A stretch of DNA of 64,000 bases from Candidatus Bathyarchaeota archaeon (GTDB lineage: Archaea > Thermoproteota > Bathyarchaeia > 40CM-2-53-6): NCBI GenBank assembly GCA_005883075.1, contig VBAX01000049.1:7064-71063 (forward strand), given 5' to 3'. Positions 34,943-53,000 of this stretch are shown piece by piece. The translations under genes and the position numbers were made by a program. The notes beneath the pieces were generated by a model. That model was given only the letters and a program-made list of their open reading frames with translations, was not told the DNA's origin and ran no database searches. Numbering within the stretch: the first letter of the stretch is position 1; every line of letters begins with the position of its first letter.

Positions 34943-35135
34943 GGCTGGGGGTTCACGTGTATGGTTTTTTGGCTGCTAGAGCATGCTCTAGTCTGAGCGT
35001 TTGTGGGGACCGGTCGCGGCGGAATTAAACGTTTTTCCAGTGCTCTTGATCGAGACGCGGTTTGTGTGGATGCGGGGAAAGCCAATTAGGGCCTTGCATC
35101 TGCTCCGTTGCGTTGCGGGCAGGGACTTGGTATTG

Positions 35136-36367: not shown

Positions 36368-36635
36368 ATTAGGTATTCTCCGCGAAGAGGTTTGACGCGT
36401 GCAATTTCCTCCAGTAGATGGCTACTAGAAGAGTCCAGAAGCTTCACTATGCCTTCATCCCGTACAACGGGATGTCTCTGCGGCGAAGCTGGACGTCTAA
36501 AGACCCCCTTGAGCATCAATTCTCGTCCATTAGAATGTCTGCAATGATGGCACAACTGTCAGCTACGGGCCCGCCAAATACTCTTATCTGGGACGACTAC
36601 TCCCCGCCGTACACCTCGAGTAACGGATCGTAAGC

Positions 36636-37238
36636 GTGAGGCTGGAAAAAATGGGTCCTGATGGCGTCGTGACAGATTCGTCTCTAGAAAAGAAGCCAGA
36701 GGAGAAAGAGAGTCTTCCAATCGCGACCAGGGCTATACGGCTTGATGGAGATATTGACCGTGCGCTAGAAGCGATTGCAAAGCAAGAAAACCAGAGTGTC
36801 AGTCTCATCATGAACAAGGCCCTTCTCAGGTACGTAGACTGGGAACACCCGGCCGGAAGATTTGGCCTGATACCAGTGTCGGCTAGCGTCATGAGGAAGC
36901 TGTTCGAGCTATTGACTCTTGACCAAGCTAGGACTTTCGGCAAGGAGGCCGGAGCCCAATTCCTTTCCGAGTTCGTAAATTTCCGGTTTAAGGTCTTGAA
37001 CTTCAACGCACTCCTCAAAGCACTCGACTTCTTGGGAGACCGGTATGCCAGAGAATTCCATTTCGACCAGAGCTTTGATGGCAAAGTCCACACCATCATA
37101 ATAAAGCACGATAGAGGATCTGCTACGTCAGCATACTACGCTGAGGCATTGAAAGCCCTTCTCGAGCGCTTAGGTCTCAGAGCAGACACGGTCGAAAGCG
37201 ATCAACAGGTCACCATCACCGTCCGCGGTCATGATTGA
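36636..37238 (+). CDS. ribbon-helix-helix (CopG/Arc-like) domain protein with conserved about 130-aa C-terminal domain, paralogue 1
   Basis: 200-aa ORF. The RHH pattern is TRAIRLDGDIDRALEAIAKQENQSVSLIMNKALLRYVDWE. The C-terminal domain is shared with 38573..39148 (FGKEAG..SEFVNFRFKVLNF..LKALDFLGDRYAREFHFDQSFDGKVHTIIIKHDRG..SAYYAE..DTVESDQQVTITVR). Confidence 0.75.
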   Translation: MRLEKMGPDGVVTDSSLEKKPEEKESLPIATRAIRLDGDIDRALEAIAKQENQSVSLIMNKALLRYVDWEHPAGRFGLIPVSASVMRKLFELLTLDQARTFGKEAGAQFLSEFVNFRFKVLNFNALLKALDFLGDRYAREFHFDQSFDGKVHTIIIKHDRGSATSAYYAEALKALLERLGLRADTVESDQQVTITVRGHD

Positions 37239-37369
37239 AAGAATGAACACAGGTCGCCACGCAATAAGGGTCTCATATCGGACCGGCCATCGAAGTCAAT
37301 CCTCCTCTCCACATCTGCCACTGACAGGCCTATTTGGCCGATAAGTTCGGTCAGAGAACGGAGAGCTGT

Positions 37370-38155
37370 TTAGGAAATATTGCTCAGTTCGATCACCTTG
37401 GGCCTTTTCCGGATCATTCGCGCAATCGGGGAGGAGTCCGAGGACTTGTATGCTTGCCGTTCTCTTCGACTCAAGGGTAGGTGCGCACGCTCGAATCTCT
37501 CATCGCCGGGAGGCTGTAGGTTCTTCAACGGGTCCATCGAAATCTCTGCCACGACTTGGTTGTCCGTGCTGGTCAAACTGAACCGTTTGACCTCGCCTTC
37601 GAAGCTCTCTCTGATCATAGTTTCCAACATTCCTTCATAGAAGAGGGACCATTTCTTCCCCATGCCATGCAGAAGCGTCAACATTCGCGTGGAGCCAGTT
37701 GTGGCTTGGTCGAAATGGAACATTCTTCCGTATCGGCCGAACAGTTCAAGGACGCGGATACGAGGCACGATGCCATGCTCCCGAGAATAGGATGTGGCAA
37801 CAGTCCTCCACTCGTGGAGCCACTGCGACTTCCCAAGCTCGCGGACATGCTCCTCTGGGACCCACATCATCAGTTTGACGAGAAGCGAGGAGAATGTCGA
37901 CGCAACCCGGAACCTCTCGCTAACCACATCCCACTCCACGTATTTCCTCAACGCACGGTTAGCGATGACGTTTACACTGAGACCTTGTTGTTCGGCCTCC
38001 TTAGTGAGTCTTTCAATGGTGTCGGTTTCCAAATGAAAAGTGAAGGTCTTCGACTTGACTCGACGCGATCGGTTTGAAGAAGACAAAATTCTCGATCCCC
38101 TCTGAAGGAGGCTCCTCGACCCAGGGGTGTTGGTCCTGAGAACTAGCGAAAACAT
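37370..38155 (-). CDS. RHH domain protein, paralogue 2 (most divergent, C-terminal extension)
   Basis: 261-aa ORF. The RHH pattern is KTFTFHLETDTIERLTKEAEQQGLSVNVIANRALRKYVEWD. The same C-domain layout follows (VRELGKSQ.., LELFGRYGRMFHFDQATTGSTRMLTLLHGMG). Confidence 0.7.
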   Translation of the reverse strand: MFSLVLRTNTPGSRSLLQRGSRILSSSNRSRRVKSKTFTFHLETDTIERLTKEAEQQGLSVNVIANRALRKYVEWDVVSERFRVASTFSSLLVKLMMWVPEEHVRELGKSQWLHEWRTVATSYSREHGIVPRIRVLELFGRYGRMFHFDQATTGSTRMLTLLHGMGKKWSLFYEGMLETMIRESFEGEVKRFSLTSTDNQVVAEISMDPLKNLQPPGDERFERAHLPLSRRERQAYKSSDSSPIARMIRKRPKVIELSNIS

Positions 38156-38572
38156 TCACATTTAAACCAACACTTTTGGCCAAAGAACAAGAATAGCCCG
38201 CAATCATTAGAATCCCGCCACAAACTAGCCCTGCGGATATTAGGAGACGACCGGAACAATGCAGCGCTGGCTTGAGATGGATACATCAACACGAAAGGAT
38301 GGTTCCAAAGTCAGTGGGTTCCAAGTCTTGGATTCCCGTTATCGGGTTCAGCACAGCATGTTCAAGTCGGCGGTCTCAGCTCTGCGATCATCCTTCGTTA
38401 GTGAAATGAAGGTGAGGCATCTGAACAACGCACTGACGTGTTGGCCTTGATCCAACATCGCTGCCATCCCACGACATGCGCTCCGCGTTGAAGACCGGTG
38501 TGTCAAGCGGCGCTTGACAGCATAACCCTTTGCCTGATCAGGCCGAGTGAGCCGTCGTTATTACTACCTTAC

Positions 38573-39148
38573 CTAATTCCGAACTGTGATCGTAACCTGT
38601 TGATCGCTCTCGACCGTGTCCACTTTAAGATTCAAACGATTGAATAGAACCTTCGCCATCTCGGCGTAGTATGCTGACGTCATAGGTCCTCTATCGTGTT
38701 TGAAAATGATTGTGTGCATGCTCCCATCGAAGCTGTGTTCGAATCTGAAAGATCGGGCGTACTCGCTACCCAGAAGTTCCAAGGCCTTTACCGTAGTGTC
38801 AAAGTCAATCTTCTTGAACCAGAAGTTGATAAACTCAGAATACTCGTTCTCAGCCGACTGTCTGCCTAATTCCCTAGCTTCCGCGTCAGTGAGGCTCTCG
38901 TATATTCTCCTCATCTTGGCAGTAAACACCATCATGAACCCAAACTTCTCCGCATAGATCTCCCACTCAACATGTCTCCTGAGTGCTTTGTTAATTATGA
39001 AACTAATACTCACGTTTTCTTGATTCGCAAGCTCCTCCAACTTGAATAGAATGTCACCCTCAAGTCTTATGGTACGCGTCTCGCTCGAGACACGCGCGGG
39101 TTCAGCCTTCTCGGTTTCAAGCAATAGTTCGGTCAAGGAGTTTACCAT
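38573..39148 (-). CDS. RHH domain protein, paralogue 3
   Basis: 191-aa ORF. The RHH pattern is TRTIRLEGDILFKLEELANQENVSISFIINKALRRHVEWE. The C-terminal DTVESDQQVTITVR is identical to paralogue 1, and the coding DNA there is also near-identical. Confidence 0.75.
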   Translation of the reverse strand: MVNSLTELLLETEKAEPARVSSETRTIRLEGDILFKLEELANQENVSISFIINKALRRHVEWEIYAEKFGFMMVFTAKMRRIYESLTDAEARELGRQSAENEYSEFINFWFKKIDFDTTVKALELLGSEYARSFRFEHSFDGSMHTIIFKHDRGPMTSAYYAEMAKVLFNRLNLKVDTVESDQQVTITVRN

Positions 39149-39175
39149 GATTGGCTACCTGCGCCTGGTCGGCGG

Positions 39176-39886
39176 TCATCCTCCATAGGAAATGGGGATT
39201 TCTTGGTGCATTCGAGTCTCAGATGGTTGCCTACGGTATGATTCTGACCAGGTTGGCTTGCCTATTTCACGGGGAGTCTTTAGACGGATTACTACTTGGT
39301 CTTCGGTGCGTTCGGACTCTGGATCTAGATTCAGAAGGCCCTTGAATATGCTGGTCAAAAATTGTTCGTTGAAAACGGACCCTTTTGCGCCAAGTCCGTG
39401 TTTCACTATTATTGTATGCACTCTGCCATCGAAGGTGTGTTGCAGGCTGAAAATTCGGGCGTACCGGGAGCCGAGTAACCTTAGAGTTTCGAGAACAGTG
39501 TCCAGGCTTAGCTTCTTGAACCGGAAGAGTATGAAATCTCTCCCAAAGTTCTTTGCCGCCCATTCGCCTAGTTCCCTCGCTTGTTCGACTGTAAAATAAC
39601 TGTACATTTTCGCGTGCAGGAATCCTGGTATGGCGACGAAGCCGAATTTTTCCGCCGCGATATCCCATTCAGTAAGCTTTTGGAGAGACGAGGTCACGAG
39701 ATAGTTGACGCTGACACGCTCTTGTCTGGCCAGTTGTTGTAGCTCCAGATCGACTTGGGGGCTAAGCCGTATCGTCCTTGTAATCGTTTCGCGTGGCGTA
39801 AGGGTTCCCTGGTGGTACAACTGGTATTGGCAGGTGCGTATATTACTGTTCTGTGGTCTAATCCAATCACTTAGAACACCGCCCAC
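39176..39886 (-). CDS. RHH domain protein, paralogue 4
   Basis: 236-aa ORF. The RHH pattern is TRTIRLSPQVDLELQQLARQERVSVNYLVTSSLQKLTEWD. The C-domain reads ARELGEWAAKNFGRDFILFRFKKLSLDTVLETLRLLGSRYARIFSLQHTFDGRVHTIIVKHGLG. It lies 27 nt upstream of paralogue 3 on the same strand. Confidence 0.75.
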   Translation of the reverse strand: MGGVLSDWIRPQNSNIRTCQYQLYHQGTLTPRETITRTIRLSPQVDLELQQLARQERVSVNYLVTSSLQKLTEWDIAAEKFGFVAIPGFLHAKMYSYFTVEQARELGEWAAKNFGRDFILFRFKKLSLDTVLETLRLLGSRYARIFSLQHTFDGRVHTIIVKHGLGAKGSVFNEQFLTSIFKGLLNLDPESERTEDQVVIRLKTPREIGKPTWSESYRRQPSETRMHQEIPISYGG

Positions 39887-40392: not shown

Positions 40393-40620
40393 ATGCCAGT
40401 AGAATTTGAGATGCGAAAATGGTGCGCGATCGTAAAGCTCGAAGGATACACGACTCCCGCTAGCGCACGAGCACTAGTTCAAAAGTTTCACAATATCGTC
40501 GAGGGCTTCCGAGATGAGGGGGTCGACCTTGACGTCTTCATGCTCGTGGAGGATGAAAACGAGCTTCGATCAGTGGACGAATCTGTTACCCGCAAACCCG
40601 ACAGGACGAAGGAAAGGTAA
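40393..40620 (+). CDS. hypothetical small protein (first gene of the co-directional array)
   Basis: 75-aa ORF with an ATG start and an acidic C-terminal half. No family recognised. Confidence 0.45.
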   Translation: MPVEFEMRKWCAIVKLEGYTTPASARALVQKFHNIVEGFRDEGVDLDVFMLVEDENELRSVDESVTRKPDRTKER

Positions 40621-40667
40621 GTTCTCACACTAGAGTATCGAATTGAGGGTGAACGCGCATTAAGTCT

Positions 40668-42098
40668 TTGATGTTAACTTGGGAATTCCCGCCGAGAATC
40701 ATAGGCGGCATTTCGACTCACGTCTACCACCTTTCAAGGGCTCTGGTGGAAAAGGGAACCTCGGTTCGCGTGATAACCTGCGATTTTCCCAATGCCCCTG
40801 CCGAAGAGATTATTGACGGGGTCCCGGTATCGCGAGTCGATAGCGGCCGGGTTCCTGAGTCCAACTTTCTCCTCTGGATCTATCATCTGAACTCCCAGAT
40901 GATCTCGAAAGCTACTGAGCTATTCGAGACTGAGAGATTCGACTTGATACACGCCCATGACTGGGTTGTGGGAAGGGCGGCTGTGGAACTCAAGAATCGG
41001 CTTGGTCTTCCGCTAATCTCTACAATTCATGCGACCGAGATTGGAAGGGGAGGTAGCTTAGACGGTGAGTATCGCAGGAAAGTGAGGGACATCGAGCGGC
41101 TACTGGTAGAGCAGAGCGACGGGATTATCTGCTGCAGCAACTACATGCTCGACCATATCCAATATGTACTCGGTGCAGTGAAAACCAAGATCCGCGTTAT
41201 TCCAAACGGTGTCGAAGCATCTCGGTTCAATAACGGCCGCCAGCCACAACTCATTCCGACTGGAGTTTCCGAAGACAGAAAAACCATACTCTACGTCGGC
41301 CGGATTGTTCGCGAAAAGGGTATCTTCACACTCCTGGATGCTTTTGAGAAACTGCGAAAGCAGGGGAAGGATGTCAGCCTCGTCCTCGTAGGTGAAGGCC
41401 CACTCAAAGAGGATTTGGCCAAGGAAGTCCTCCGGAGGAAACTGAACGACCGTGTTAAGCTCGCAGGATTCGTTGACGAAAAGAAACTAGTCTCCCTCTA
41501 CAATTCAAGCGATGCCTTTGTCCTACCATCCCACTACGAACCCTTTGGAATGGTCGCACTCGAAGCAATGGCGTCACGGGTCCCTGTAGTGGTCTCAGAC
41601 GTCGGAGGACTCTCCGAAATAGTTGAGGATGGAATAACAGGCGTGAAGGTTCCAGCCGCTAACCCAAGCACCCTCGCAGAAGGTATTCTTCGAGTGCTCG
41701 AGGATCGAGAACTCTCAGAGCAGTTGAAGGAGAACGCCTACCGAGCAGTGCAAGAGAGATACAGGTGGGATATGATTGCTGAGAAGACAATCGAAGCCTA
41801 TAGAATCAGTTTTGCCAAACCATCACCGTCTTCGAGAGCGGTAGAAGATGCTGAATTTCTCAGCGACCCAGCATTAGTACAATTCCTCTTGACGATAGGT
41901 GCAACAGACGGGGAGGGAGCCATAAGCGCCGGAGAGATAGCGTCTTTAATCAAATCCCCCGAAACTCCTGTGAAGCTCAGCCTTGGAAGGCAGGCCTCGC
42001 TGGGATATGTGTCAACAAAGCTCACCCCAGACTCAGCGAGAGTTCGCTACCACTTGAGTCCAGTCGGCATAATCAAAGCCTGCAGTGACATGTCATGA
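40668..42098 (+). CDS. GT4 family glycosyltransferase (glycogen-synthase/GlgM-like) with C-terminal winged-helix-like extension
   Basis: 476-aa ORF with LTWEFPPRIIGGISTHVYHLSRAL at the N-terminus and the GT-B C-domain EPFGMVALEAMASRVPVVVSDVGGLSEIVEDGITG. An extra about 90 aa at the C-terminus reads ISAGEIASLIKSPETPVKLSLGRQASLGYVSTK..RYHLSPVG. Confidence 0.85.
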   Translation: MMLTWEFPPRIIGGISTHVYHLSRALVEKGTSVRVITCDFPNAPAEEIIDGVPVSRVDSGRVPESNFLLWIYHLNSQMISKATELFETERFDLIHAHDWVVGRAAVELKNRLGLPLISTIHATEIGRGGSLDGEYRRKVRDIERLLVEQSDGIICCSNYMLDHIQYVLGAVKTKIRVIPNGVEASRFNNGRQPQLIPTGVSEDRKTILYVGRIVREKGIFTLLDAFEKLRKQGKDVSLVLVGEGPLKEDLAKEVLRRKLNDRVKLAGFVDEKKLVSLYNSSDAFVLPSHYEPFGMVALEAMASRVPVVVSDVGGLSEIVEDGITGVKVPAANPSTLAEGILRVLEDRELSEQLKENAYRAVQERYRWDMIAEKTIEAYRISFAKPSPSSRAVEDAEFLSDPALVQFLLTIGATDGEGAISAGEIASLIKSPETPVKLSLGRQASLGYVSTKLTPDSARVRYHLSPVGIIKACSDMS

Positions 42099-42213
42099 AA
42101 AACGATCAACTTCTGTCTTCATCTTCTCTCCATCAGATCATCATCAGTTACTCTCTACTCATCAGCAGACTCAGTCTCGAAGGAACTGCAAAGGACTCAA
42201 ATCAGGATCAGCG

Positions 42214-44751
42214 ATGAAGACTGAAAACAAGCGTAGAAGCAGAATCATCAGGCTGGTCCTCCTGACGGCAGTCTTGGCTGCTTCGCAGACCATCGGCTTC
42301 GAAACATCATGGAAATTGCAGACGGTCAATGCAACTCTATCGAGCAGTTCTGCTTTCCAGTACATAGTCACGATCTTAATGGAGAACAACGGGCTCTGCG
42401 ACGTCACTCCAACCGTTGTCTCTGGTTGTAGCTCCTCGTCAATACCCGCACCATACCTGACTACACTGGCTCAGACTTACGGATTCAGCACTCACTACAC
42501 GGCTGTAGATCATCCCAGCGAGCCTAACTATGTTGCGTTGTTCGGGGGAAGCACCTTCGGCTACACCTCTGACGGCTACTGTTGTTTCCAACTTAATGCG
42601 CCAAATCTTGTTGACCGACTAGAGACGGCAGGGCTCACCTGGAAGGCTTTTGCCGAGGACGCTTCAGGTTCTGGAACATGTAACTTCATGCCGCCCAGGT
42701 GGGGAGATCATTATCCGTTCATCGGCTTCAGCGACATGAAAACATCCGCGCGATGCGCCGACATGCTCACCACAACATCGCCCCTCGACCCAGAGTTCGT
42801 AGGCGCACTCAACGGAGCAACACTACCGAACTATGTCTGGCTCACTCCCAACGACACTGACAACATGCACAGTTCTTCAGTTGCCGTAGGCGACGCCTAC
42901 CTAGCAACCCTAGTCCCGCTGATCCTGTCCAGCAGAATGTTCACCACCCAGAAAGCGGCACTATTCATCGTATTCGACGAGGGAAACGACTTTTGCCCAA
43001 CAGGCAACAGCAGCAGTGACTGTGTCGTCGCAGAATGGTCCGGCCCAGCAGTGAAAAAAGCCTATAGCTCAAGCACGTTCTACAACCACTATTCGTACCT
43101 CTCAACTCTCGAAGCAAACTGGAATCTTCCAAGTCTAACTTCCAACGATGCGTCAGCCACTCCCATGACAGAGTTCTTCGGAGCCTCGCCACCACCCGCG
43201 CTCTCAGCTAGCTTCACCTACGGTCCATCTTTCCCCCAGACAGGACAGACCGTTTCGTTCACCGGCTCAGTTTCAGGAGGAAGCCCTCCCTACAGTTATT
43301 CTTGGAGCTTCGGTGATGGATCGACTGGAATAGGATCGTCTGCGCAGCACACCTACTCTTCTACGGGAACACTCACCGTGGCCCTCACAGTGAAAGATAA
43401 TGGCTCGCCCCAGCAGACCACGACATCTCAGCAATCCCTAACCCTCTCGGGTGCGCCTCCTCCGCTGACCGCTAGCTTCGCCTACAGTCCTTCTTCGACC
43501 CAGGCAGGACAACCGGTCACGTTCACAGCGAGCGCCAGCGGTGGGACGTCTCCTTTCACTTTTAGCTGGTCCTTCGGAGACGGATTGACCGGAACAAGCT
43601 CTCCTGTAACGCACACGTACTCGTCGGCAGGATCATACACGACTGCTCTGACGGTCAAGGATAGCAGTATCCCACAGCAGACAGCTACCTCTCAGAAGGC
43701 AGTCTCTGTTACTCACCCGCCCCCTCCCATATCTGCGACCTTTACAGTCAGTCCGTCTTCGTCTGACGTTAGACAATCTATCTCGTTTACAGCCTCTGCT
43801 TCCGGAGGGGCTCCGCCTTACAGTTACTCGTGGAGCTATGGAGATGGTTCTGCGGGGACAGGTCTCCAAGTGACCCACACTTACAATAGTGATGGAACCT
43901 ACCAGGTCACACTGACAGTCGCGGACTCACTGGGCAATGCCGGGACAGGATTATCGCCGGTCGTTATTGGAATGGCTTCCCTGCAAGATGGATTCACGTA
44001 TAGTCCTACTAGCCCGCAACCAAGTGATAGTATCAACTTTACAGCGTCTGCGAGAGGCGGGACTCCACCATACTCCTACTCTTGGGATTTTGGAAACGGA
44101 GCCTCAGCCTCGGGAGGCTACGCAACCTACTCCTATGCATCGGCCGGATCCTACACAGTGACTCTGACCGTCATCGATTCTGCGAACCGTTCGAATAACA
44201 CTTCTCAGAGGCTAACCATTTACTCGCCCGCTCAGCCAGATTTCAGGCTGAACACGGGTCAGTCGACCCTCAACGCTCAACCGGGTTCTGACCAATCACT
44301 AGCTATCACGGTAACGAACGACGGGGGTCCTTCGGGAACAATCATGTTCAACGCAACGATCTCACCAGCTGGGCCTCAGATCTCGCTCAACCCAGCAAGC
44401 ATTACTCTATCACCTGAAGGTTCAGGCTCTACCAGTCTGAACGTAAACGTCGCTCCAAACACTACTCCCGGACCTTACTGGATACAAGTGAATGCTACCA
44501 ACGGATCCGTAACGCATTCTGTCACTGTACAAGTCGATGTCGCTCAGCATAGCCAGCCGCCCACGTCAAGTCAGCCGTGCCAGTTCTGCCTCGTCTCAAC
44601 TGCAATCATTACCAGCTTGGTAGTTGCAGGCACGGCAACACTTGTCACCCTTCAAATGCGCAGACGAAGAATCCCAACGTTTCGAGTCAGCACAACGAGC
44701 GAACACGATCCAAACAGAGCTGGTCAGCGTCTAGGGAGGCCGCTTCAGTAG
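42214..44751 (+). CDS. membrane-anchored surface protein: phosphoesterase (PLC/AcpA-like) domain + 5 PKD domains + C-terminal TM anchor
   Basis: I chose the Met at 42214 (MKTENKRRSRIIRLVLLTAVLAAS signal/anchor). The phosphoesterase pattern is YIVTILMENNG, EPNYVALFGGSTFG, NYVWLTPNDTDNMHSS, ALFIVFDEGN. There are five W.FGDG PKD units (e.g. PPYSYSWSFGDGSTG) and a C-terminal LVSTAIITSLVVAGTATLVTLQMRRRR. Confidence 0.85.
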   Translation: MKTENKRRSRIIRLVLLTAVLAASQTIGFETSWKLQTVNATLSSSSAFQYIVTILMENNGLCDVTPTVVSGCSSSSIPAPYLTTLAQTYGFSTHYTAVDHPSEPNYVALFGGSTFGYTSDGYCCFQLNAPNLVDRLETAGLTWKAFAEDASGSGTCNFMPPRWGDHYPFIGFSDMKTSARCADMLTTTSPLDPEFVGALNGATLPNYVWLTPNDTDNMHSSSVAVGDAYLATLVPLILSSRMFTTQKAALFIVFDEGNDFCPTGNSSSDCVVAEWSGPAVKKAYSSSTFYNHYSYLSTLEANWNLPSLTSNDASATPMTEFFGASPPPALSASFTYGPSFPQTGQTVSFTGSVSGGSPPYSYSWSFGDGSTGIGSSAQHTYSSTGTLTVALTVKDNGSPQQTTTSQQSLTLSGAPPPLTASFAYSPSSTQAGQPVTFTASASGGTSPFTFSWSFGDGLTGTSSPVTHTYSSAGSYTTALTVKDSSIPQQTATSQKAVSVTHPPPPISATFTVSPSSSDVRQSISFTASASGGAPPYSYSWSYGDGSAGTGLQVTHTYNSDGTYQVTLTVADSLGNAGTGLSPVVIGMASLQDGFTYSPTSPQPSDSINFTASARGGTPPYSYSWDFGNGASASGGYATYSYASAGSYTVTLTVIDSANRSNNTSQRLTIYSPAQPDFRLNTGQSTLNAQPGSDQSLAITVTNDGGPSGTIMFNATISPAGPQISLNPASITLSPEGSGSTSLNVNVAPNTTPGPYWIQVNATNGSVTHSVTVQVDVAQHSQPPTSSQPCQFCLVSTAIITSLVVAGTATLVTLQMRRRRIPTFRVSTTSEHDPNRAGQRLGRPLQ

Positions 44752-44752
44752 C

Positions 44753-45805
44753 TTGAGAGTGTACATGGAGCAGCTTCGGCCCGACACTCTTGAAAACCTG
44801 GCTACGAGTTACAGACTGGGTAGCGCTATCCAGTCCGGAAAGCCTGCGAAAGGCGCACACTACGTTGTGTATCGACTCCGCACGCCGCGTGGTGATTTTG
44901 CCCTACTCAAGCCGCGACCACTCTCGATCAACGAATCGTACGGAACAAGCCTTCTGGAGGAACTCCGCCGAGCGAACAGGATCTTTCATCATCTTGCCCG
45001 CCACGGATTTCCCGCGCCCGCTCCTCTGTTAACGAGAGCAGGTTCGACGATAGTGACGATCAAGGGAGAACACCATGCTGTCTATCCCTATGTTCACGGC
45101 CGGGCCATGGTGAGAGGTAATATTCGCCAAGTAGCAAAGGCCGGTGTAACCCTTGGTTCTTACCACCGCATAATGGCAGACTACCCGAAGAGAATGAGTC
45201 GATCCGAAGAGCCGTTCCCCAGCCGATTCCAAGACCGAGTGGACTTGTTCACCGAAAACGTCGAGGCCCTGGACGGACAACCCTCGGCTCTTGGGATAGA
45301 GGCGAGTCTGGACTACTTCAAGGACAGTCTGCTGGACATCGAGTTATCGCTGCTGAGGCTTTCGTATGAAAATCTGCCGCAGCTGACAATCCATGGAGAC
45401 TACAGACGCCAGAACATTCTGTTCGAAGGGGACAGGCTAGCCGCGGTCATAGACTTCCATCGCTCTAGGATTGAAGTTCGGTCCTTGGACCTTGCAATAG
45501 CGCTCGCGGACATTCTACCGAGCACGAGTAATGGGCACGCTCTGGGCCTGGCTCGTAGTTTCATCAATTCCTACGAGAAAGTCCAGCAATTGTCGAATGA
45601 CGAGCAAGAAGCTCTCCCTGTCCTGGTAGAGGCGAGAGTTGCTTGGAGAGCTCTTCGCAGGATTCGCAGAATCGTCAATACCAAAGACAAGAAGAAGATG
45701 CTGAGACGAGCTCGAAAGTTTCAGCTCTACGTCAGTCATCTTCGTAGGGTCAGGATGATCCGGTCAAGCTGGAAGCAGATATTCGCGGAGGAAAGTAGCC
45801 GGTGA
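44753..45805 (+). CDS. APH/CotS-like phosphotransferase-fold kinase 1
   Basis: 350-aa ORF with the catalytic loop LTIHGDYRRQNILF and AAVIDFHRSRIEVRSLDLA (HGD..N / DF motif of the aminoglycoside/choline/maltokinase fold). Confidence 0.75.
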   Translation: MRVYMEQLRPDTLENLATSYRLGSAIQSGKPAKGAHYVVYRLRTPRGDFALLKPRPLSINESYGTSLLEELRRANRIFHHLARHGFPAPAPLLTRAGSTIVTIKGEHHAVYPYVHGRAMVRGNIRQVAKAGVTLGSYHRIMADYPKRMSRSEEPFPSRFQDRVDLFTENVEALDGQPSALGIEASLDYFKDSLLDIELSLLRLSYENLPQLTIHGDYRRQNILFEGDRLAAVIDFHRSRIEVRSLDLAIALADILPSTSNGHALGLARSFINSYEKVQQLSNDEQEALPVLVEARVAWRALRRIRRIVNTKDKKKMLRRARKFQLYVSHLRRVRMIRSSWKQIFAEESSR

Positions 45806-47751
45806 TGAATACGGCCGTAACCGTTCAACGCGAAGTCGCTGCTCTAGCAATAGTCCACCACGCAAACCAGTACGTGGTCACGGATGGTTATGATAACCGG
45901 GTCGGAATATCAGGGATCGTCGGAACCTCCTCGTCTCAAACGGGTCTCCTTCGAGTCCTGAAACTCCACGAACGATACAGAGTCCCATTTAGCCTCCATA
46001 TTAGCGGCACCTTTCTCGAATCTCTAGCATGGCACAGCCCTGAGTTCCTCTCGGAGGTGAATCGGCTGGCTGGGCTTGGGCTGGTGGACCTCTTAGGCGG
46101 CGCCTACGCCCAGAATATGACACGATTCTTCTCCCCAGAGCATAATCTGAGACAGATGAACGAGGAGCTCCTCCTCTACGAGAGCCTCATCGGCTGGGAC
46201 CCGAAGAAGATCACAACATTCTGGCCAACAGAGCGCCTCTGGGAAACTGAAGCAATGGCGCCTCTCCTGACAAGCTGCGAACTACTCAATGGAGGCTATC
46301 AGCATGTTGTGATAGACGATAGGCTGCTCCATTCTACGACAGGAAGCCCCAGTCCTCGCCAACTCTACGACTACGACCACGCTTGGAACCCGGTCAACTT
46401 CCAGATGCACCGTATCAAGAATGGCCTGGGACTCTGCGCGCTCCCAATCTCGTTTGGACTCCGCCGAAACATTCCTCCGCGAACACGAGAAGACCTGGAG
46501 AAAACCCAGGCTCAGCTGGAATGGATTCTTGACATTAGCTCCGACTATGACAATCAGCTCGTCGCAATCTATGCGGACGACATGGAGAAGGTCGCCGGGG
46601 TAGGCTGGGACGCAAGGGGTCCCCTCCAGTTCGAGGCGACGCTCAGATGGCTCTCCGAAAACCCATTCCTCCAGCCTGTCAAGCTAGCCGAATGGGCTGC
46701 CACGCACAGGGCAGGATCCGAGAGACAGATCGACACGGGTGCATACGCAGAGCTTGTCGATGAGTTCGGGGCTGGTGAGAACTACGAGTCTTGGTATTAC
46801 GACCCGCGATGGTCCCTCTACCGCAACTACTATGCCTGGTCAGAAGAGAGAGTGCGAGAGCTCGACTCTAGTGGAGCCGACCCGGCTCTCATGCAACTCG
46901 CCTGGAAAACTCTGCTGGCAACGACATGGCAGACGGCATGGCACACTCCCCGGACCGGGGCCCATGGAGAAAATCTAAGCGATGAGGGGCCCAGCGCTTG
47001 GACCCGGGCTATAGCCAGTCATAGTCGGATCGCAGCAATAATTGCTGAAGCAGCCTACTGGATGACTCACAAGAGTGGCCGGGCCCAGGCTGATCTTAGG
47101 GATCTGGACTCAGACGGGGAAGACGAGCTTGTTCTCAAGAATGACAAACTATTCGCGGTTTTCTCTCCAAGGCATGGCGGTCGCCTGGTCTACCTGTTCA
47201 CTGTCAGCAATCCGCCGGGCAGACTGGTGATCGGGAACCCCATCGACGATTGGAATCTACTAGAAGATCTCCACGCATACATGGATGCTCCACCCAATCA
47301 TCCAGGAGCACTCGCAGATGTTGGATACGAGCATGACCACTACACCACAGAGCTACGCGTACCGTATGGAGACACCGTATGGGCAAGACTCTCAAACTCC
47401 GAGAAGAAGAGCACCGGCTTTGGAATACTGAAGAATCTCAGCCTCGGAAAGGGCGAGAGTACAATCCGCACAGAGTACAGCCTCCCGAACTCTCTACCCA
47501 GACTGTCCACAGAGATAGGATTCTCACCAGATTATCAGCAACTCCTCAGAATGGGACCATCAGCCGTCGAAGAATGTTCTCCCGCCAAGAGCATCAGAGG
47601 ATGGTCCAACGAAGGAGTGACCGTTGGGGCCCGGCTCGACGGAGGATTCGCGATATGGGATAAGCCGAGACAGGATCGGTTCGGACATGGTTACCTCTTG
47701 AGAGTGACAGGATTCCGTGGTTTCACTGTCTGGATAGGAGCGGAGGACTAG
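45802..47751 (+). CDS. GH57 family-like glycoside hydrolase/glucanotransferase
   Basis: 649-aa ORF with IVHHANQYVV (region I-like), FWPTERLWETE (region III W..ER.W with nucleophile Glu) and IYADDMEKVAGVGW (region IV DD.EK..G with catalytic Asp). Its start overlaps the kinase-1 stop. Confidence 0.7.
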   Translation: MMNTAVTVQREVAALAIVHHANQYVVTDGYDNRVGISGIVGTSSSQTGLLRVLKLHERYRVPFSLHISGTFLESLAWHSPEFLSEVNRLAGLGLVDLLGGAYAQNMTRFFSPEHNLRQMNEELLLYESLIGWDPKKITTFWPTERLWETEAMAPLLTSCELLNGGYQHVVIDDRLLHSTTGSPSPRQLYDYDHAWNPVNFQMHRIKNGLGLCALPISFGLRRNIPPRTREDLEKTQAQLEWILDISSDYDNQLVAIYADDMEKVAGVGWDARGPLQFEATLRWLSENPFLQPVKLAEWAATHRAGSERQIDTGAYAELVDEFGAGENYESWYYDPRWSLYRNYYAWSEERVRELDSSGADPALMQLAWKTLLATTWQTAWHTPRTGAHGENLSDEGPSAWTRAIASHSRIAAIIAEAAYWMTHKSGRAQADLRDLDSDGEDELVLKNDKLFAVFSPRHGGRLVYLFTVSNPPGRLVIGNPIDDWNLLEDLHAYMDAPPNHPGALADVGYEHDHYTTELRVPYGDTVWARLSNSEKKSTGFGILKNLSLGKGESTIRTEYSLPNSLPRLSTEIGFSPDYQQLLRMGPSAVEECSPAKSIRGWSNEGVTVGARLDGGFAIWDKPRQDRFGHGYLLRVTGFRGFTVWIGAED

Positions 47752-47759
47752 TACCAGGT

Positions 47760-48794
47760 ATGACTCAGACGAATCGAAACTATCTTAACAGTGGATCTTT
47801 CAACGAGCCCATCCTCCATGGGCTGACCGAGGTCGAATTCGTAAAGGACATCCTAACCACCGAGGCATTCGACCCACGGTTACAGCAGCCGCTGGAGGGG
47901 TTCGAGACGCGAATCCTGAAGAGGCATCTACGCAAGGTAATAATCGACTACACTCTAAAATTCAAGGACTCGACCAGAAACTACATCGGCCTATACAGAG
48001 AATCAGACCAGCGTCTCGGACATACTTTCTCAGTCATGAAGACCCTGAGGTCAAACGGATTCGGACAAGAAAGCAATCTAAGAGTACCTAGCCCTGTTCT
48101 CTACATACCCCCACTTTCATTCCTCATGATGGAGCAGGCTGAGGGTCAGCCACTTCGTGAAATGTTCGAAAGCAGAATGGATTCAGGGCCTTACGTGAAG
48201 GGCGCGGCAAGATGGCTCGCAAAACTGCACAACAGCAACATTGGACTGGACGGCGAGTTCTCCCGTGATGATGAGATCGAAGCCTCTCGGAGATATGCGA
48301 GAGCTGGATCGTGGCTCCTTCCCACTCTAAAATCGGATATACAATCGATTTCAAACCAGCTGATCGACGCGCAGAAAACCCTCCCGCTCCACGCGAGGAA
48401 GCCCATTCATGGAGACTACCATCCGAGGAACATCATCGTCTCGCACGATCTGACAACCGTCATAGACTTCGAAGAAGCCAGGATGGGCGATCCTGCCTTT
48501 GACGTCGGCTATTTCGTAGCTCAGACCAAGATGACCCATGGACTGGGAGACGCCACTTTCGAAGCCGTCGAAGCATTCATCCAAGAATATCAAGAAAACC
48601 AGCCAAGCATAGACCCGGATCTTACGCAGCGAGCAGCAGTGTTCGAAGCACAGACATACCTTCAAAGAATCTACCACACCTACTACCTACTCGCCCTCAG
48701 GCCAGACTTTGATCTCATCTCGAATTGGCTGAACGAGTGCGAGGGTTGCATTCGAAAAGCACAGAGTAGTCGCCTGGAAACGGGGAAGCACTAG
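47760..48794 (+). CDS. APH-like phosphotransferase-fold kinase 2
   Basis: 344-aa ORF with PIHGDYHPRNIIVSHDLTTVIDFEEARMGDPAFDVGYF, the canonical HGD.H..N ... IDFE..G.P..D pattern. Confidence 0.8.
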   Translation: MTQTNRNYLNSGSFNEPILHGLTEVEFVKDILTTEAFDPRLQQPLEGFETRILKRHLRKVIIDYTLKFKDSTRNYIGLYRESDQRLGHTFSVMKTLRSNGFGQESNLRVPSPVLYIPPLSFLMMEQAEGQPLREMFESRMDSGPYVKGAARWLAKLHNSNIGLDGEFSRDDEIEASRRYARAGSWLLPTLKSDIQSISNQLIDAQKTLPLHARKPIHGDYHPRNIIVSHDLTTVIDFEEARMGDPAFDVGYFVAQTKMTHGLGDATFEAVEAFIQEYQENQPSIDPDLTQRAAVFEAQTYLQRIYHTYYLLALRPDFDLISNWLNECEGCIRKAQSSRLETGKH

Positions 48795-48874
48795 GACTAA
48801 TGATCTCTTCAATAATTCGAAGCGGGAATGCACCAGCCTCCAGACTCTCAGTCCGGGCAACTCGCAACAAGCGA

Positions 48875-49915
48875 ATGACAGGGAAGATCCTGACAATATT
48901 AGTCCTCTGCGTAGCTCTAATCCCACTGGTACAGCAGAACAACATTCTCTCCCCGTATGGGAGCCCAGCTGCTTCCACAACTGGAGACGAATTGCACCCT
49001 AGCATTACAAACCCGATGTTTCCTGCTGCGATGCAGCCCACAGCAGCCATCACATTCAGCCCGTCTAGCCCTGCAGCCGGATACCCCGTTACTTTGAACG
49101 TCACGTCTAGCGGCGGAACAGCACCCTACACTTTCTCATGGACGTTCGGAGATGGGACAAACGGGACCGGCAACCCGGCCATCCACACATTCGCAAGCTG
49201 GAGCTTGGGGTACAATGTCACGGTGACCATCAAGGACGGCACTGGAGCTGCCGTCTGGACGTATATTATCCTCAGTGTCAAGAACGACGTGCCTCCCGTA
49301 CCAAAGTTCACCTGGACACCTACAATAGTCTTCACTGGAGAAACAGTATTCTTCGACGGCTCCACTAGCTCTGACCCCGACGGAGCAATCGTGGACTATG
49401 TGTGGGACCTCGGAGAGGGAGCCCCCCAGACAGGGATCGGTGTTCTTCACACCTACTCCTCCCCGGGAGTATACGAGGTCAGTCTCTCGGTAACAGATGA
49501 CAGCGGAGTCACCGTGATCATGCCGATGGCAGTCTGGGTTCATCCCGCGCTGGCCCTAACCGCCTCCTCCAACGCAACCCAAGGACTCGCTCCGATGGGC
49601 ATCTCGGTCAGCACACAGGTCTCCGGCGGACAGTATCCATATACTTATTCGTGGGACTTTGGAGACGGCCTAACATCTACCCGTCCAAACCCGATCCACA
49701 ACTATACGATTCCCCGCGTTTATCGAGTTGAGGTGACAGTGACTGACTCGCTAGGCCACGCTGCCTCGCAAGTCATGAACATAACAGTCATCGCTCGGCC
49801 AGTCGAACTCACCTTTCTCGGACTCTCAGAGACCACCCTCAAAGTCGGAGGCTTTCTCACGGCGATGAGCGCGTTCCCACTGATGATCTTCATGATCGTA
49901 CGGCGTAGGAAATAG
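48875..49915 (+). CDS. membrane-anchored PKD-repeat protein (3 PKD units)
   Basis: I chose the Met at 48875 (MTGKILTILVLCVALIPLV). The PKD units are APYTFSWTFGDGTNG, VDYVWDLGEGAPQTG and YPYTYSWDFGDGLTS. The C-terminal TM plus basic tail is FLTAMSAFPLMIFMIVRRRK. Confidence 0.8.
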   Translation: MTGKILTILVLCVALIPLVQQNNILSPYGSPAASTTGDELHPSITNPMFPAAMQPTAAITFSPSSPAAGYPVTLNVTSSGGTAPYTFSWTFGDGTNGTGNPAIHTFASWSLGYNVTVTIKDGTGAAVWTYIILSVKNDVPPVPKFTWTPTIVFTGETVFFDGSTSSDPDGAIVDYVWDLGEGAPQTGIGVLHTYSSPGVYEVSLSVTDDSGVTVIMPMAVWVHPALALTASSNATQGLAPMGISVSTQVSGGQYPYTYSWDFGDGLTSTRPNPIHNYTIPRVYRVEVTVTDSLGHAASQVMNITVIARPVELTFLGLSETTLKVGGFLTAMSAFPLMIFMIVRRRK

Positions 49916-50046
49916 TGGGGGCTGAGATTCTTCAGACGATCAGGATTCGCCGTGAGGGGCCATACCCGGGCCGCTAAGAGAGTCTCTGGCCGTTCGTACA
50001 AGCCAGACCCCGTCTACGGCTGCGCACACCAGGGAGACCAGTCGAA

Positions 50047-53000
50047 GTGGGAGCCAGATTCAAGGTCTTAGTTCTGGGGCTCTGCCTCGTGTTCGGAATT
50101 CTGATAGCATCTTTTGCGGTGTCGACGGACCACGACAGGAGAAGCTATCCTGCAATCCAGGCAACACCCCCCGGCCAGGCCTCTTTCGACTACATAGTCG
50201 TCATCGTCATGAACAACGCTAGCGCAAAACAGGTCTACGGGTCCTCGGCCACCCCCTACCTGAACTCTCTAGCAAGCACCTACGGGTATGCCACTGCCTA
50301 TTCCGATGTCGAAGCGGCTGTTAGTGATCCCAACTATCTTGCTCTCATCGGCGCCAGTACTTTTGGTCTGACAGCCGACTGCTACCCGACCCAGTGCAGT
50401 GTCAGCGACGTGAGCATTGTTGACAGTATAGAGGGAGCGGGACTGACCTGGAATGCCTGGGCTGAAGACTATCCCGTATCCCAGGGCTGCAGCCTCTTAC
50501 CGTCGAACGCCGAGTACAACTCTAAACACTTCCCTTTCCTCTACTTCGAAAACATCGTCAACGATCCCGCAAGATGCGACAACCTGCTCAGGGCAAACTC
50601 GGTGGTCACGTCCAGCATTGAGACAGACGATCTGTTCCTCAAATCCCTCGGTTCCACCTCCTCGGCTGCGAATTACAACTGGCTCACACCCAACCAGTGC
50701 GACGACATACACGACTGCCCCCTCTCAACCGGAGACAAGTACCTCTCACAACTCGTCCCGAAAATACTGAGCAGCACCGTCTTCACGACCCAGAACGCAG
50801 CACTCTTTATCACATTCGCCGAGTCAACTGGCTCATCAGTTGGTAATGTCCCAGCCATCTGGGCAGGACCCGTTGTCAAGACAAAATTCCAGTCATCAAA
50901 ATCATACAACCACTACTCGGTACTCACCACCCTCGAAACCGCATGGGGCCTCCCGCCTCTAACCTCCGAAGACAGCTCCGCATCCGCCATGACCGAATTC
51001 TTCAAAAACCTAGCACCGCAAACAAGTCTCTCATACGCCCCGACTCACCCGGTGGTGGGGGACTCGATCAGTTTCAACTCCACCGCCACAGGCGGAATTC
51101 CCCCGTATACATTCAGCTGGAACTTTGGCGAATCTCCGAGCAACGTGCGTGGAGGGACCGGCCTTCCCAACACGATGACCCACACATACACCAAGGCCGG
51201 AACCTATACCGTGACAGTGAACGCTACTGATACAAATGGCAAGATTGGCTCGGCATTAGCTACGGTCACTGTTGCCGCTCCTCTAACCCTGACGGTTAGT
51301 GGTTCCTCCTCTGGTATCATTGGAACCAGTATCAGCTTTTCGGCTGCGGCCTCAGGCGGCACTTCTCCCTACTCATTCTCTTGGAACTTTGGCGACGGAA
51401 CCAGCCTCGCTACCGGCAGCACGGCTTCCCACAAATACGCCGTCGCAGGAGCCTATACCGTACGAGCGAACGCTACTGACGCCAAAGGGAGACTCGCCTC
51501 AGCATCTGCGAGCATCACCATTAATGCTCCCCCCTTGACTGTAACTGTCACCGCCTCCGGTTCAAGCGAGGTTGGCCTGGCAGTGAACCTCATGGCGACA
51601 GCTTCCGGTGGAACACAACCATACGTTTCATTCATCTGGGACTTCGGCGACGCCTCTAGCGGCTCAGGTAACTCAGTCGCGCACGTCTATACGGCGTCTG
51701 GGTCATACAGCGTGACGGTCACAGTGAAGGACTCCGCAGGAATTACCGCGACCTCGTCATCCCGTTCCCTTGCCGTGTCTGCTAGATTACAAGTCTCTTC
51801 TGTCCATGCCGTTCCCAACCCGACCGAGACTGGTTATTCCATCAGTCTCTCGGCGACGACCTCAGGCGGCGTATCCCCAGTCTCGTGCAACTGGAACTTA
51901 GGCGACGGCTCTCCACCCTCCTTCGGATGCTCCATCACGCACGTCTATGCTATTGCCGCGGACTACATCGCGACAGTGACTGCAACAGACAATCTAAGCG
52001 TGACCGCAACAAATAGCATGACCATAACTGTCAGCCCCAAACTGACAGTAACTGTTAGCACCAGTACGCCTAACCCTGTAGTTGGACAGAGCCTCACCTT
52101 CACCGCCACGACCGCCAACGGCGTTGGTGTAGCCACGTGTAGCTGGAACTTTGGCGATGGTTCCACGGGCAGCGGATGCTCCAAAACCCACGCGTACACC
52201 ACTCAGGGAACCTTCACGGTCAAAGTCACAGCAACTGACACTCTCATCGTCACTGCTACGGCCTCGGTTACCGTCGATGTTGTATCTACACTCGGCGTAA
52301 GCCTGAATGCCAATCCGAGCACAACAGAGTCCTCTGTAAGTATCAGTTTTACGGCTGCAGCTGCTGGTGGAACGCCTCCTTACACGTCATACAGTTGGAC
52401 CTTCGGTGACGGCACGACAGCGACTACAACCGTGGCCACTACGATCCACACTTACAATTCGACGGGGCTATTCAGCGTAGAGGTAACGGTCACCGATTCG
52501 GCCGGCAAGACAGCGGCATCTAGCTTCTCAGTAACTGTCAATGCGAGGTTGACCGTAACCGCAGTCGCTACTCCGAACCTAACCGAGGTTAGCGTTGCGG
52601 TCGGCTTTACGGCGCCCACTACAGGTGGTCTTGGCACAGCGACTTGCAAGTGGACCTTTGGAGATAGCGGTACCGCTAACGTATGTTCTGCAAGCCACAC
52701 CTATACTAGTGCCGGAACATTCACAGCCATTGTCACCGCGACTGATGCTCTGGGCGTGACCGCGACAAACAACACGACCATAACTGTCAGCCCCAAACTG
52801 ACAGTGACTGTGACTACGAGTACGTCTAACTCTGTAGTTGGACAGAGCCTCACTTTTACCACCACTCCCTCTGGTGGTGTGGGCACTGCGACTTGCACCT
52901 GGAACTTTGGTGATAACACTACTGGTTTTGGCTGCTCGACTACCCACACTTACACAACTAGCGGGACCTTCGCCGCCACGGTCACTGCCACGGATATTCT

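Follow-up and report, generated by a model that had tools for sequence, protein, structure and literature searches.

Ten genes, all on the plus strand and arranged head to tail, occupy positions 40393-60387 of the stretch of archaeal DNA analysed here, which is 64,000 nucleotides long in full and is hereafter called the window. They include a putative glucan synthase, an enzyme of glycoside hydrolase family 57 (GH57), two kinases of the aminoglycoside phosphotransferase (APH) fold, named K1 and K2, and a half-size ATP-binding cassette (ABC) exporter, together with surface proteins that carry PKD domains. The recurrence of this gene neighbourhood across two domains of life exceeds chance, and the view that these genes form one conserved functional unit is supported. 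We tentatively propose that the cassette makes, decorates and exports an anionic alpha-gluco-oligosaccharide, bearing phosphate or, in some bacteria, sulfate, and that the window holds its Bathyarchaeial version; this is the reading that we favour, and we regard it as quite possible, if somewhat short of probable. Gene clusters for the synthesis, decoration and export of oligosaccharides are already known as a kind, and what is new is an undescribed cassette: the first-pass annotation of this DNA knew of no system with such a composition, and none was found in the literature that we searched.

The window is chromosomal DNA from a soil archaeon of the Bathyarchaeia, with genes for the PolD large subunit and SecY and an intron-containing tRNA, and the nearest public loci are those of Bathyarchaeia/Bathyarchaeota metagenome-assembled genomes (protein identity 90-93%). 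Domains in the window were assigned with Pfam and NCBIfam. Successive genes of the array overlap slightly or are separated by a few bases, as at 44751/44753 (1-bp gap), 45805/45802 (4-bp overlap), 47751/47760 (8-bp gap) and 48794/48800 (5-bp gap), and at the final two junctions (56085/56061 and 58166/58150) the genes again overlap; the largest intergenic gap is 131 bp. The gene order and these junctions bear out the description of the region in the first-pass annotation as an unbroken plus-strand array.

A cassette shared by archaea and bacteria

Homologues of the window GH57-like enzyme number more than 200 in a 90%-clustered database, and an exhaustive profile search returned 189 clusters at 50% identity (E<1e-30). 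The loci of relatives that carry such homologues are labelled L001-L087, and 80 loci came from a scan of one genome per species. Among archaea the carriers are Bathyarchaeia and Nitrososphaeraceae. Bacterial carriers fall in at least six phyla and comprise Acidobacteriota, Myxococcota, Geobacteraceae, Chloroflexota, Actinomycetota (Arthrobacter, Pseudarthrobacter, Pseudonocardia, Nocardioides, Modestobacter, Geodermatophilus, Cellulomonas and Rubrobacter) and Bacillota (Bacillus, Neobacillus, Peribacillus, Paenibacillus, Oceanobacillus and Shimazuella). The core of the cassette is made up of a glucan synthase of glycosyltransferase family 4 or 5 (GT4 or GT5), a GH57 enzyme that belongs to the 4-alpha-glucanotransferase type, APH-fold kinases, of which there are one to five, and an ABC exporter that resembles MsbA.

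Linkage was counted with purpose-built hidden Markov models (HMMs) run on six-frame open reading frames (ORFs), in the 52 bacterial loci that had at least 2.5 kb of sequence upstream and at least 6 kb downstream. A kinase or sulfotransferase gene lay beside the GH57 gene on the same strand in all 52 (kinase in 49, sulfotransferase in 6), an orthologous exporter in 39 and a glucan-synthase-type transferase in 31; six related loci with precomputed Pfam annotation agree with these results. Transferase, GH57 and kinase genes do co-occur, which the first-pass annotation had named as a check, and the cassette is both larger and far more widespread than that annotation held.

Several archaeal cassettes share one order, with transferase, GH57, APH kinases and ABC exporter following one another in L001, L002, L008, L086 and L087. 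The L001 cassette reads GT4, GH57, APH, ABC, PKD, PKD and phosphoesterase-PKD, and that of L086 reads GT4, GH57, APH, ABC, APH, phosphoesterase-fn3, YdjM and phosphoesterase. L002 and L087 are two paralogous cassettes of a single archaeal genome (GCA_030157145.1), each with GT4, GH57, four or five APH-domain genes and ABC. A bacterial example is L004 of the Acidobacteriia, which consists of Metallophos, GH57, three APH genes and ABC. In a rough neighbour-joining tree, the archaeal GH57 proteins form one clade nested among those of Acidobacteriota, Myxococcota and Desulfobacterota-like bacteria, which suggests a single transfer between the domains.

Gene fusions tie the same enzymes together. 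A GT5 domain lies directly upstream of the GH57 domain in 19/19 Actinomycetota loci with enough flanking sequence, mostly within one frame of about 1170-1280 amino acids (aa). The GlgA~GH57 fusion of L068 was confirmed by its matches to TIGR02095 (443 bits against a cut-off of 328 bits) and to Pfam Glyco_transf_5 and PF03065. A GH57~K2-type kinase fusion is found in six loci of Acidobacteriota, several of them Pyrinomonadaceae, and in the protein P0083, and K1 and K2 are fused in L064. These fusions indicate that synthase, GH57 enzyme and kinase belong to one process that starts from alpha-1,4-glucan.

Bacillota cassettes consist of a small kinase-like gene, GT4, K2, GH57 and a HipA-like kinase. 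In Bacillota loci L040-L065 (for example L041:7154-7804, 11955-12728 and 12811-13434), the HipA-like kinase (PF20613) and two copies of a protein of about 215 aa without a family match flank the cassette. A partial parallel exists in the GT4 protein CotSA of Bacillus and the APH-fold spore kinases CotS, CotI and YtaA, in that a GT4 gene adjoins an APH-fold kinase gene and the K1 profile matches YtaA. The Bacillota cassettes, too, run GT4, kinase and GH57 without an exporter. The B. subtilis CotSA/CotS operon, for its part, is not known to contain a GH57 gene. The CotS model TIGR02906 (cut-off 172.7 bits) gives only 53 bits for K1 and 21 bits for K2 of the window. A spore-coat reading of the Bacillota version was considered and rejected: its kinase has no match to the CotS model at E<=1e-5, and the neighbours of the cassette in L041 are housekeeping genes (SelB, PanK and SbcC), not spore genes. 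That the Bacillota product might be deposited on the spore surface within the mother cell is speculation, to which the neighbouring genes lend no support.

Putative glucan-acting enzymes, kinases and sulfotransferases

The anchor gene of the cassette (45802-47751, plus strand) encodes a GH57 protein of two domains and without a signal peptide. PF03065 matches it with 45.3 bits against a gathering cut-off of 21.2 bits (E 9e-12), the homologues share this domain, and its sole sequence match in the PDB is the 4-alpha-glucanotransferase of Thermococcus litoralis. An AlphaFold2 model (mean confidence, pLDDT, 88) shows the expected GH57 fold, with a catalytic (beta/alpha)7 barrel and, after it, a helical bundle. 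The top Foldseek matches of the model are all GH57 structures (1k1x, 1ufa, 3p0b, 7e1y, 5wu7, 3n8t, 4cmr and 2b5d), and the T. litoralis enzyme 1k1x (E 1e-24) ranks ahead of GH57 branching enzymes, amylopullulanase and maltose-forming amylase, at about 15% identity over the structural alignment to this nearest solved relative. Residues 428-648 of the model are all beta, the alignment to 1k1x is full-length and PF09095 gives a weak match (4e-4), so that the window enzyme has the C-terminal beta-sandwich of the 4-alpha-glucanotransferase subgroup, as in 1k1w.

The first-pass annotation had marked W..ER.W and DD.EK as the catalytic regions of this enzyme, and W141, E144, R145, W147, D259, D260, E262 and K263 within them proved invariant across 22 homologues. 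E144 aligns with the nucleophile E123 of the T. litoralis enzyme in conserved sequence region 3 (CSR-3) and D260 with its proton donor D214 in CSR-4. A Lys at CSR-4 position 23 is the fingerprint of 4-alpha-glucanotransferases (Martinovicova and Janecek, PMC6037648), and the window sequence ADDMEK has K263 at this position. From these tests of sequence and fold, we conclude that the protein is probably a catalytically competent cytoplasmic enzyme of the glucanotransferase type. It resembles the T. litoralis enzyme (1k1w/1k1x) in its architecture, with a (beta/alpha)7 barrel and helical bundle and then a C-terminal beta-sandwich, and in its catalytic Glu, Asp and CSR-4 Lys. However, that enzyme stands alone and serves maltodextrin metabolism, whereas members of the window family are in every case linked to kinases, glucan synthase and exporter, and in some cases fused to them.

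The transferase gene (40668-42098, plus strand) encodes a predicted cytoplasmic, retaining glycosyltransferase of 476 aa, a putative alpha-1,4-glucan synthase according to its Pfam and PDB matches. It matches Pfam Glycos_transf_1/GT4 (6e-52) and, at its N-terminus, Glyco_transf_5 (6e-15). Its best PDB matches are the sucrose-phosphate synthase 6kih, GlgM 6tvp (second-best) and the Pyrococcus GlgA. The best NCBIfam match is the GlgM family TIGR02149, at 180.5 bits below the cut-off of 302.4 bits, and the BshA and MshA models score nearly as high. Pfam thus agrees with the first-pass annotation on the families present (a GT4-type transferase, GH57, two APH-fold kinases and phosphoesterase-PKD proteins), with the refinement that the transferase sits on the GT4/GT5 glycogen-synthase border. 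A C-terminal extension of about 90 aa (41820-42098, plus strand) has no Pfam match; it is kept in the archaeal cassettes L001, L002/L003, L006, L008, L086 and L087, and tblastn found no match to it in any bacterial locus tested. Judging from its sequence pattern alone, the extension looks like a winged-helix domain.

A synthase beside a GH57 enzyme could be read as a set of ordinary storage-glycogen genes, in which the transferase is an archaeal glycogen synthase, the GH57 protein is its branching or amylase partner, as has been proposed for TACK archaea, and the remaining neighbours (kinases, exporter and PKD proteins) have no part. Clusters of GT4 or GT5 with a GH57 'amylase' are discussed as candidate glycogen genes in archaea without a classical branching enzyme, a Sulfolobus GH57 mutant loses its glycogen, and a 2024 review in Chem Rev mentions GT4 and GH57 clusters only in this role, as possible archaeal glycogen genes (PMC11046441). 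The likeness of the transferase to Pyrococcus GlgA and the presence of a true GlgA in Actinomycetota point the same way. Nevertheless, the linkage of GH57 with kinases and exporter persists over at least seven phyla, GH57~kinase fusions exist, the GH57 structure ranks with 4-alpha-glucanotransferase ahead of branching enzymes, and glgB, glgC, glgP and glgX are absent from the six Pfam-annotated contexts and from the other large window ORFs scanned. We therefore consider a storage-glycogen role unlikely. A classical glycogen operon was rejected, as those four genes were not found in the annotated contexts.

A known parallel to the favoured reading, that of an exported anionic oligosaccharide, is the mycobacterial cluster for methylglucose lipopolysaccharide (MGLP), Rv3030-Rv3032, with a methyltransferase, a GH57 branching enzyme and a GT4 alpha-1,4-glucosyltransferase, whose product is decorated with methyl and acyl groups and is cytoplasmic. 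The likeness is one of logic only: adjacent GT4 and GH57 genes serve a short decorated alpha-1,4-gluco-oligosaccharide, not storage glycogen. By contrast, the window has kinases (and other loci sulfotransferases) and an exporter, and its GH57 enzyme ranks with 4-alpha-glucanotransferase and not with the branching type.

The two window kinases represent distinct subfamilies, each kept across phyla. K1 (44753-45805, plus strand) matches Pfam APH with 81 bits (1e-22) and K2 (47760-48794, plus strand) with 71 bits (2e-19). Both show the HxD....N loop and the metal-binding Asp of IDF that go with PF01636 in the APH/choline-kinase fold, in the forms HGDYRRQN...IDF (K1) and HGDYHPRN...IDFE (K2), and both appear from these motifs to be active. 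In searches of the PDB, the K1 family profile matched type II homoserine kinase 2ppq (7e-32), YtaA (7e-17) and the N-acetylhexosamine 1-kinase NahK (6e-14), and nearest to the K2 family profile were methylthioribose (MTR) kinase, the ACAD11 kinase domain and aminoglycoside/macrolide kinases. The folds nearest to a model of K2 (Foldseek) are PsiK, MTR kinase, choline kinases and APH/antibiotic kinases; antibiotic kinases among the nearest matches include those for amicoumacin, corramycin, hygromycin and aminoglycosides.

A K2-type gene adjoins GH57 in nearly all loci, across phyla. At least one kinase paralogue with the catalytic Asp is present in 68 of 71 kinase-bearing cassettes, and it is usually the K2 gene beside GH57; extra paralogues without this Asp are present in 40 of the 71, and 84 of the 168 kinase paralogues scored lack it. 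The Asp-less proteins fall into recurring types (HGQ.R, HGR.H and the bacterial K1-types HGS or HGG) with members in Acidobacteriota, Myxococcota and Actinomycetota and in one archaeon, which suggests that they are pseudokinase subunits with a conserved non-catalytic role. Examples lie at L068:14903-18119, L035:13339-16428 and L017:12174-14329. The window cassette, with its two kinases, is a reduced form. Among distant K2 relatives are the proteins P0194-P0198, of about 510 aa, two of which bear the Joint Genome Institute (JGI) names phosphoesterase or nucleoside-bisphosphate phosphatase; at least one of the five, P0198, joins PHP phosphoesterase domains to an APH kinase domain, and proteins of its type would be kinase-phosphatase fusions.

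In some bacteria the kinases give way to sulfotransferases. Two Sulfotransfer_3 genes directly follow GH57 in L014, L015, L019 and L032, in the usual kinase slot, and one such gene is visible after GH57, at the contig end, in L016 and L021; in L011, L048 and L079 a sulfotransferase stands alongside kinases. An adenosine 5'-phosphosulfate (APS) kinase and a PHP phosphatase adjoin the sulfotransferases of L032, and an ATP sulfurylase gene lies downstream of the L002 cassette. The GH57 proteins of sulfotransferase loci are 48-50% similar to the window GH57, the same as those of kinase-type Acidobacterial loci. Since a sulfotransferase dependent on 3'-phosphoadenosine 5'-phosphosulfate (PAPS) replaces an ATP-dependent kinase, the job that the two share is most simply the attachment of an anionic substituent to a product hydroxyl; a shared role in making an activated sugar-1-phosphate donor is less likely.

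This substitution bears on the specific pathway that the first-pass annotation had offered, a GH57-based variant of the maltose-1-phosphate/GlgE route, in which the donor for polymerisation is a sugar-1-phosphate made by an APH-fold kinase. The GlgE pathway (the GT4 enzyme GlgM, the maltokinase Pep2/Mak and the GH13 enzyme GlgE) likewise pairs a GT4 enzyme with an APH-fold kinase in alpha-glucan metabolism. The standing of TIGR02149 as best NCBIfam match and of GlgM 6tvp as second-best PDB match of the transferase speaks for such a variant, as does the presence of the anomeric-carbon kinases MTR kinase and NahK among the nearest kinase relatives. However, the transferase stays under the GlgM cut-off, and the kinases are not maltokinase-like: no maltokinase structure is among the PDB matches of K1, K2 or their family profiles (E<=0.01) or in the top 50 Foldseek matches for K2. 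A maltokinase identity of K1 or K2 was rejected on these single-sequence, profile and Foldseek searches. No GlgE/GH13 was seen in the window array, as the first-pass annotation had remarked, or in the six Pfam-annotated related loci. With sulfotransferases in the kinase slot and no role left for the conserved exporter, we hold a GlgE-like route to be very unlikely. The general idea of that annotation, an alpha-glucan-type pathway coupled to surface phosphoesterases, has fared well, and it is the maltose-1-phosphate analogy that has not.

The exporter and the surface proteins

The ABC gene (56061-58166, plus strand), which the first-pass annotation overlooked as part of the system, is a core member of the cassette, and the unit thus runs past 49915, where that annotation had ended it. 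Its product is a half-size exporter with a transmembrane domain (PF00664/ABC_membrane, residues 125-395) followed by a nucleotide-binding domain (PF00005/ABC_tran, residues 458-607), the type IV, MsbA-like architecture. It falls below every NCBIfam equivalog cut-off, so the models do not set its substrate class, and its 377 bits on the glucan-exporter model PRK13657 are no better than its scores on MsbA models. Orthologues of this exporter lie beside GH57 on the same strand in archaeal L001, L002, L008, L042, L086 and L087 as well. The order of the domains, together with the finding that no binding-protein gene was seen beside the transporter in the Pfam-annotated loci, favours export over import.

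Three array genes encode surface proteins. The first (42085-44751, plus strand; true start likely near 42214) is a protein of 888 aa with a PF04185 phosphoesterase domain (6e-25, 88.6 bits), four PKD domains and a C-terminal transmembrane helix; hydrophobic segments at both termini are visible in the translation. Its motifs MENN, HPSEPNY, TPND..MH and FDEG are intact at the EN.., S.PN, D..H and DE positions conserved in the PF04185 family, which we take to be catalytic. A PDB search with this domain gave only a marginal phospholipase C match (E 0.49), and the classification as a phosphoesterase therefore rests on Pfam. The second (48800-49915, plus strand) is membrane-anchored and has three PKD domains and no enzyme domain; its orthologues in L006, L007 and L009 are equivalently placed, and in L001 and L042 similar genes come after the exporter. 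The third (50047-56085, plus strand) is a giant protein of 2012 aa with an N-terminal PF04185-like domain (1e-15, 57.8 bits), about 20 PKD repeats, He_PIG and a C-terminal transmembrane helix. Its motifs read MNNA, SDPNY and FAES, against MENN, SEPNY and FDEG in the 888-aa protein (changes of E to N and of D to A), and the orthologue in L001 (L001:17713-18780; the window domain is 50047-51150) is likewise substituted, with MHNA and FAEG. With its motifs degenerate in this way, the giant protein may bind only and not be an enzyme.

A PF04185 phosphoesterase accompanies the cassette in eight of the ten archaeal loci examined. The window, L001, L006, L007, L009 and L042 have it joined to PKD repeats; L086 has it joined to fn3 repeats, alongside a separate stand-alone copy, and L087 has a PF04185 fragment. 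The order of the genes varies among these loci (57-66% protein identity), but the association with the cassette holds. In Acidobacteriota, a Metallophos protein with a signal peptide is encoded directly upstream of GH57 in five loci (L004/L005, L018, L031 and L054), and a CX5R phosphatase of the dual-specificity (DSP) type, again with a signal peptide, directly 3' of the exporter in six (L013, L017, L020, L033, L035 and L039). Three unrelated phosphoesterase families beside one cassette give the strongest support for the coupled surface system that the first-pass annotation had suspected. In L048:1966-8989 of the Chloroflexota, a sulfotransferase and large surface proteins of the FG-GAP repeat/dockerin kind are interleaved between the exporter and the kinase-GH57 pair, which parallels the PKD proteins of the Bathyarchaeia.

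Surface phosphoesterases could also serve uptake. In a scavenging scheme, which the first-pass annotation had also raised, the phosphoesterase-PKD proteins would strip phosphate from phospho-glycans in the environment, the ABC protein would import the resulting sugar, and its breakdown would fall to the kinases and the GH57 enzyme; PF04185 enzymes are typical phosphate-scavenging exoenzymes, and in archaea they are linked to the cassette. Such a scheme is highly improbable in view of the exporter architecture of the ABC protein, which has no binding-protein gene beside it, of the biosynthetic glucan synthase that is fused to GH57 and of the PAPS-dependent sulfotransferases, which are anabolic.

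The set of kinase, exporter and extracellular phosphoesterase, which recurs with non-homologous phosphatases, recalls antibiotic pro-forms such as streptomycin-6-phosphate (StrA/StrK) and acarbose-7-phosphate (AcbK), and the acarbose cluster uses a glycogen-synthase-like transferase and an amylomaltase. The cassette might accordingly be a small cluster for a secondary metabolite, a bioactive gluco-oligosaccharide such as an inhibitor of amylase or glucosidase, that is phosphorylated and inactive inside the cell, exported and then activated by the outside phosphatase. Antibiotic kinases are among the nearest folds of the kinases, and the carriers are soil organisms. However, the likeness is functional only: neither the kinases nor the phosphatases are orthologous, the cassette has no cyclitol, aminocyclitol, aminotransferase, deoxysugar or other tailoring genes, and the sulfated variants are without an obvious activation step. 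This alternative overlaps with the export of an anionic oligosaccharide and differs from it only in the purpose of the product; as a distinct explanation we think it improbable.

Proposed pathway and neighbouring genes

Under the reading that we favour, we infer what the enzymes start from and make, the sequence of the steps and the way in which transport runs as follows. The GT4/GT5 transferase would polymerise nucleoside diphosphate-glucose into a short alpha-1,4 chain, which the GH57 enzyme would re-cut or transfer, through disproportionation, trimming or cyclisation, to give a defined product. K2, in the window together with K1, would then O-phosphorylate this product using ATP, and the MsbA-like half-transporter would carry the phosphorylated product out of the cell. 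There, the membrane-anchored PF04185-PKD proteins may bind it and dephosphorylate or remodel it. The phosphate could be a 'handle' or pro-form for export, or the product could be an anionic glucan of the surface or matrix, or an analogue of the osmoregulated glucans.

The last of these comparisons is with cyclic beta-glucans and osmoregulated periplasmic glucans (OPGs), which are made by the NdvB/Cgs synthase (GT84), exported by the half-size ABC exporter NdvA/ChvA and given anionic substituents in the periplasm. The cassette is like these systems in logic only, with a presumed oligomeric glucan of cytoplasmic origin, a half-size ABC exporter and presumed anionic groups, and it is unlike them in linkage, theirs being beta, and in that the enzymes of linkage and decoration are unrelated to its own. 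A more specific version of the favoured pathway would make the product their alpha-linked, anionic counterpart, common to archaea and bacteria of the soil: a short or cyclic alpha-1,4-glucan resembling cycloamylose would receive several phosphates, or in some bacteria sulfates, and be exported, the HGQ/HGR paralogues would form a glucan-holding complex around one active kinase, and phosphoesterase-PKD or -fn3 proteins would edit the glucan at the surface. So detailed a version is rather unlikely.

Several points weigh against the proposed pathway, of which every chemical step is an inference. Nine of the ten Bacillota cassettes are without an exporter, which the model leaves unexplained, and only one of the 16 Acidobacterial cassettes has a transferase of its own, so the others must draw on glucan made elsewhere or else their GH57 must act on another substrate. 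Half of the kinase paralogues scored (84/168) lack the catalytic Asp, so that some have non-catalytic roles for which the model does not account, and APH-fold enzymes phosphorylate peptides and amino acids too. The GH57 enzyme is distant, at about 15% identity, from its nearest solved relative, and exporter-fold ABC proteins sometimes import. Finally, only in Bathyarchaeia is the cassette linked to PKD proteins, and shared ancestry could partly explain this.

If the proposal is true, the cassette represents a new branch of alpha-glucan metabolism, with an exported, phosphate- or sulfate-decorated glucan unlike storage glycogen, the GlgE-derived capsule or cyclic beta-glucans. It would give a role to one GH57 subfamily, two APH-kinase subfamilies and the pseudokinase paralogues, all of which are now annotated only generically, and it may explain the target of the abundant phosphoesterase-PKD surface proteins of Bathyarchaeia. 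The cassette spans the divide between archaea and bacteria in soil organisms, and its cultured carriers (Pseudarthrobacter, Arthrobacter, Nocardioides, Neobacillus, Paenibacillus and Acidobacteriaceae KBS 96) make the hypothesis directly testable. Among these strains are Pseudarthrobacter quantipunctorum RC-2-3, with its cassette within NZ_CP148033.1:313879-335744, Acidobacteriaceae bacterium KBS 96 (KB906767.1:3260337-3282253) and Neobacillus niacini F8.

The array ends with a gene for an OLD-family ATPase/nuclease (58150-60387, plus strand; Pfam AAA_15/AAA_21, PADLOC 'Old' 5e-30), the start of which overlaps the exporter stop. A homologue lies within the L042 cassette region (L042:5091-7232) and is absent from all other loci, and the gene is probably a passenger defence gene that rides in the operon outside the pathway. 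Its presence, together with weak matches to two Pfam models, TCAD9 and GT4-conflict, and to the lanthipeptide kinase LxmK, and with the fact that half-size ABC exporters often carry peptides, might suggest a conflict or defence system, or a cluster akin to those for ribosomally synthesised and post-translationally modified peptides, with kinases that act on proteins or peptides. The TCAD9 matches reach 20-25 bits against a threshold of 40, though, and the GT4-conflict match is among several from the GT4 superfamily that overlap, with the general GT4 models ahead of it; no precursor-peptide, dehydratase or cyclase genes were seen, and the GlgA fusion indicates a glucan. In PADLOC the transferase, K1, GH57 and K2 had no match; matches came only from the OLD gene and from the ABC protein, the latter through its generic ATPase domain. 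A role in defence or peptide modification is extremely improbable on this evidence, and identity with a known defence system was rejected in view of the PADLOC result for the enzymes.

At the head of the array lies a small conserved ORF of 75 aa (40393-40620, plus strand) with no Pfam match. It is 63% identical to a called gene of 75 aa at the equivalent position in L001, and tblastn places matches to it 5' of the transferase in L006 (75%) and L086 (41%). The opposite strand bears, just before the array begins, four paralogous genes for proteins of about 170-260 aa (36584-39886, minus strand), one of which has a weak ribbon-helix-helix match; paralogues of this family occupy the equivalent upstream position in L001 and L006, and the four could be regulators of the cassette. 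Farther upstream, a 112-nt tRNA on the plus strand (35135-35246; Rfam 40.7 bits) was missed by ARAGORN and would fit an archaeal tRNA with an intron. Shortly after the array ends, a single gene (60970-61839, plus strand) combines an AN1-type zinc finger with Peptidase_M50 (site-2 protease).

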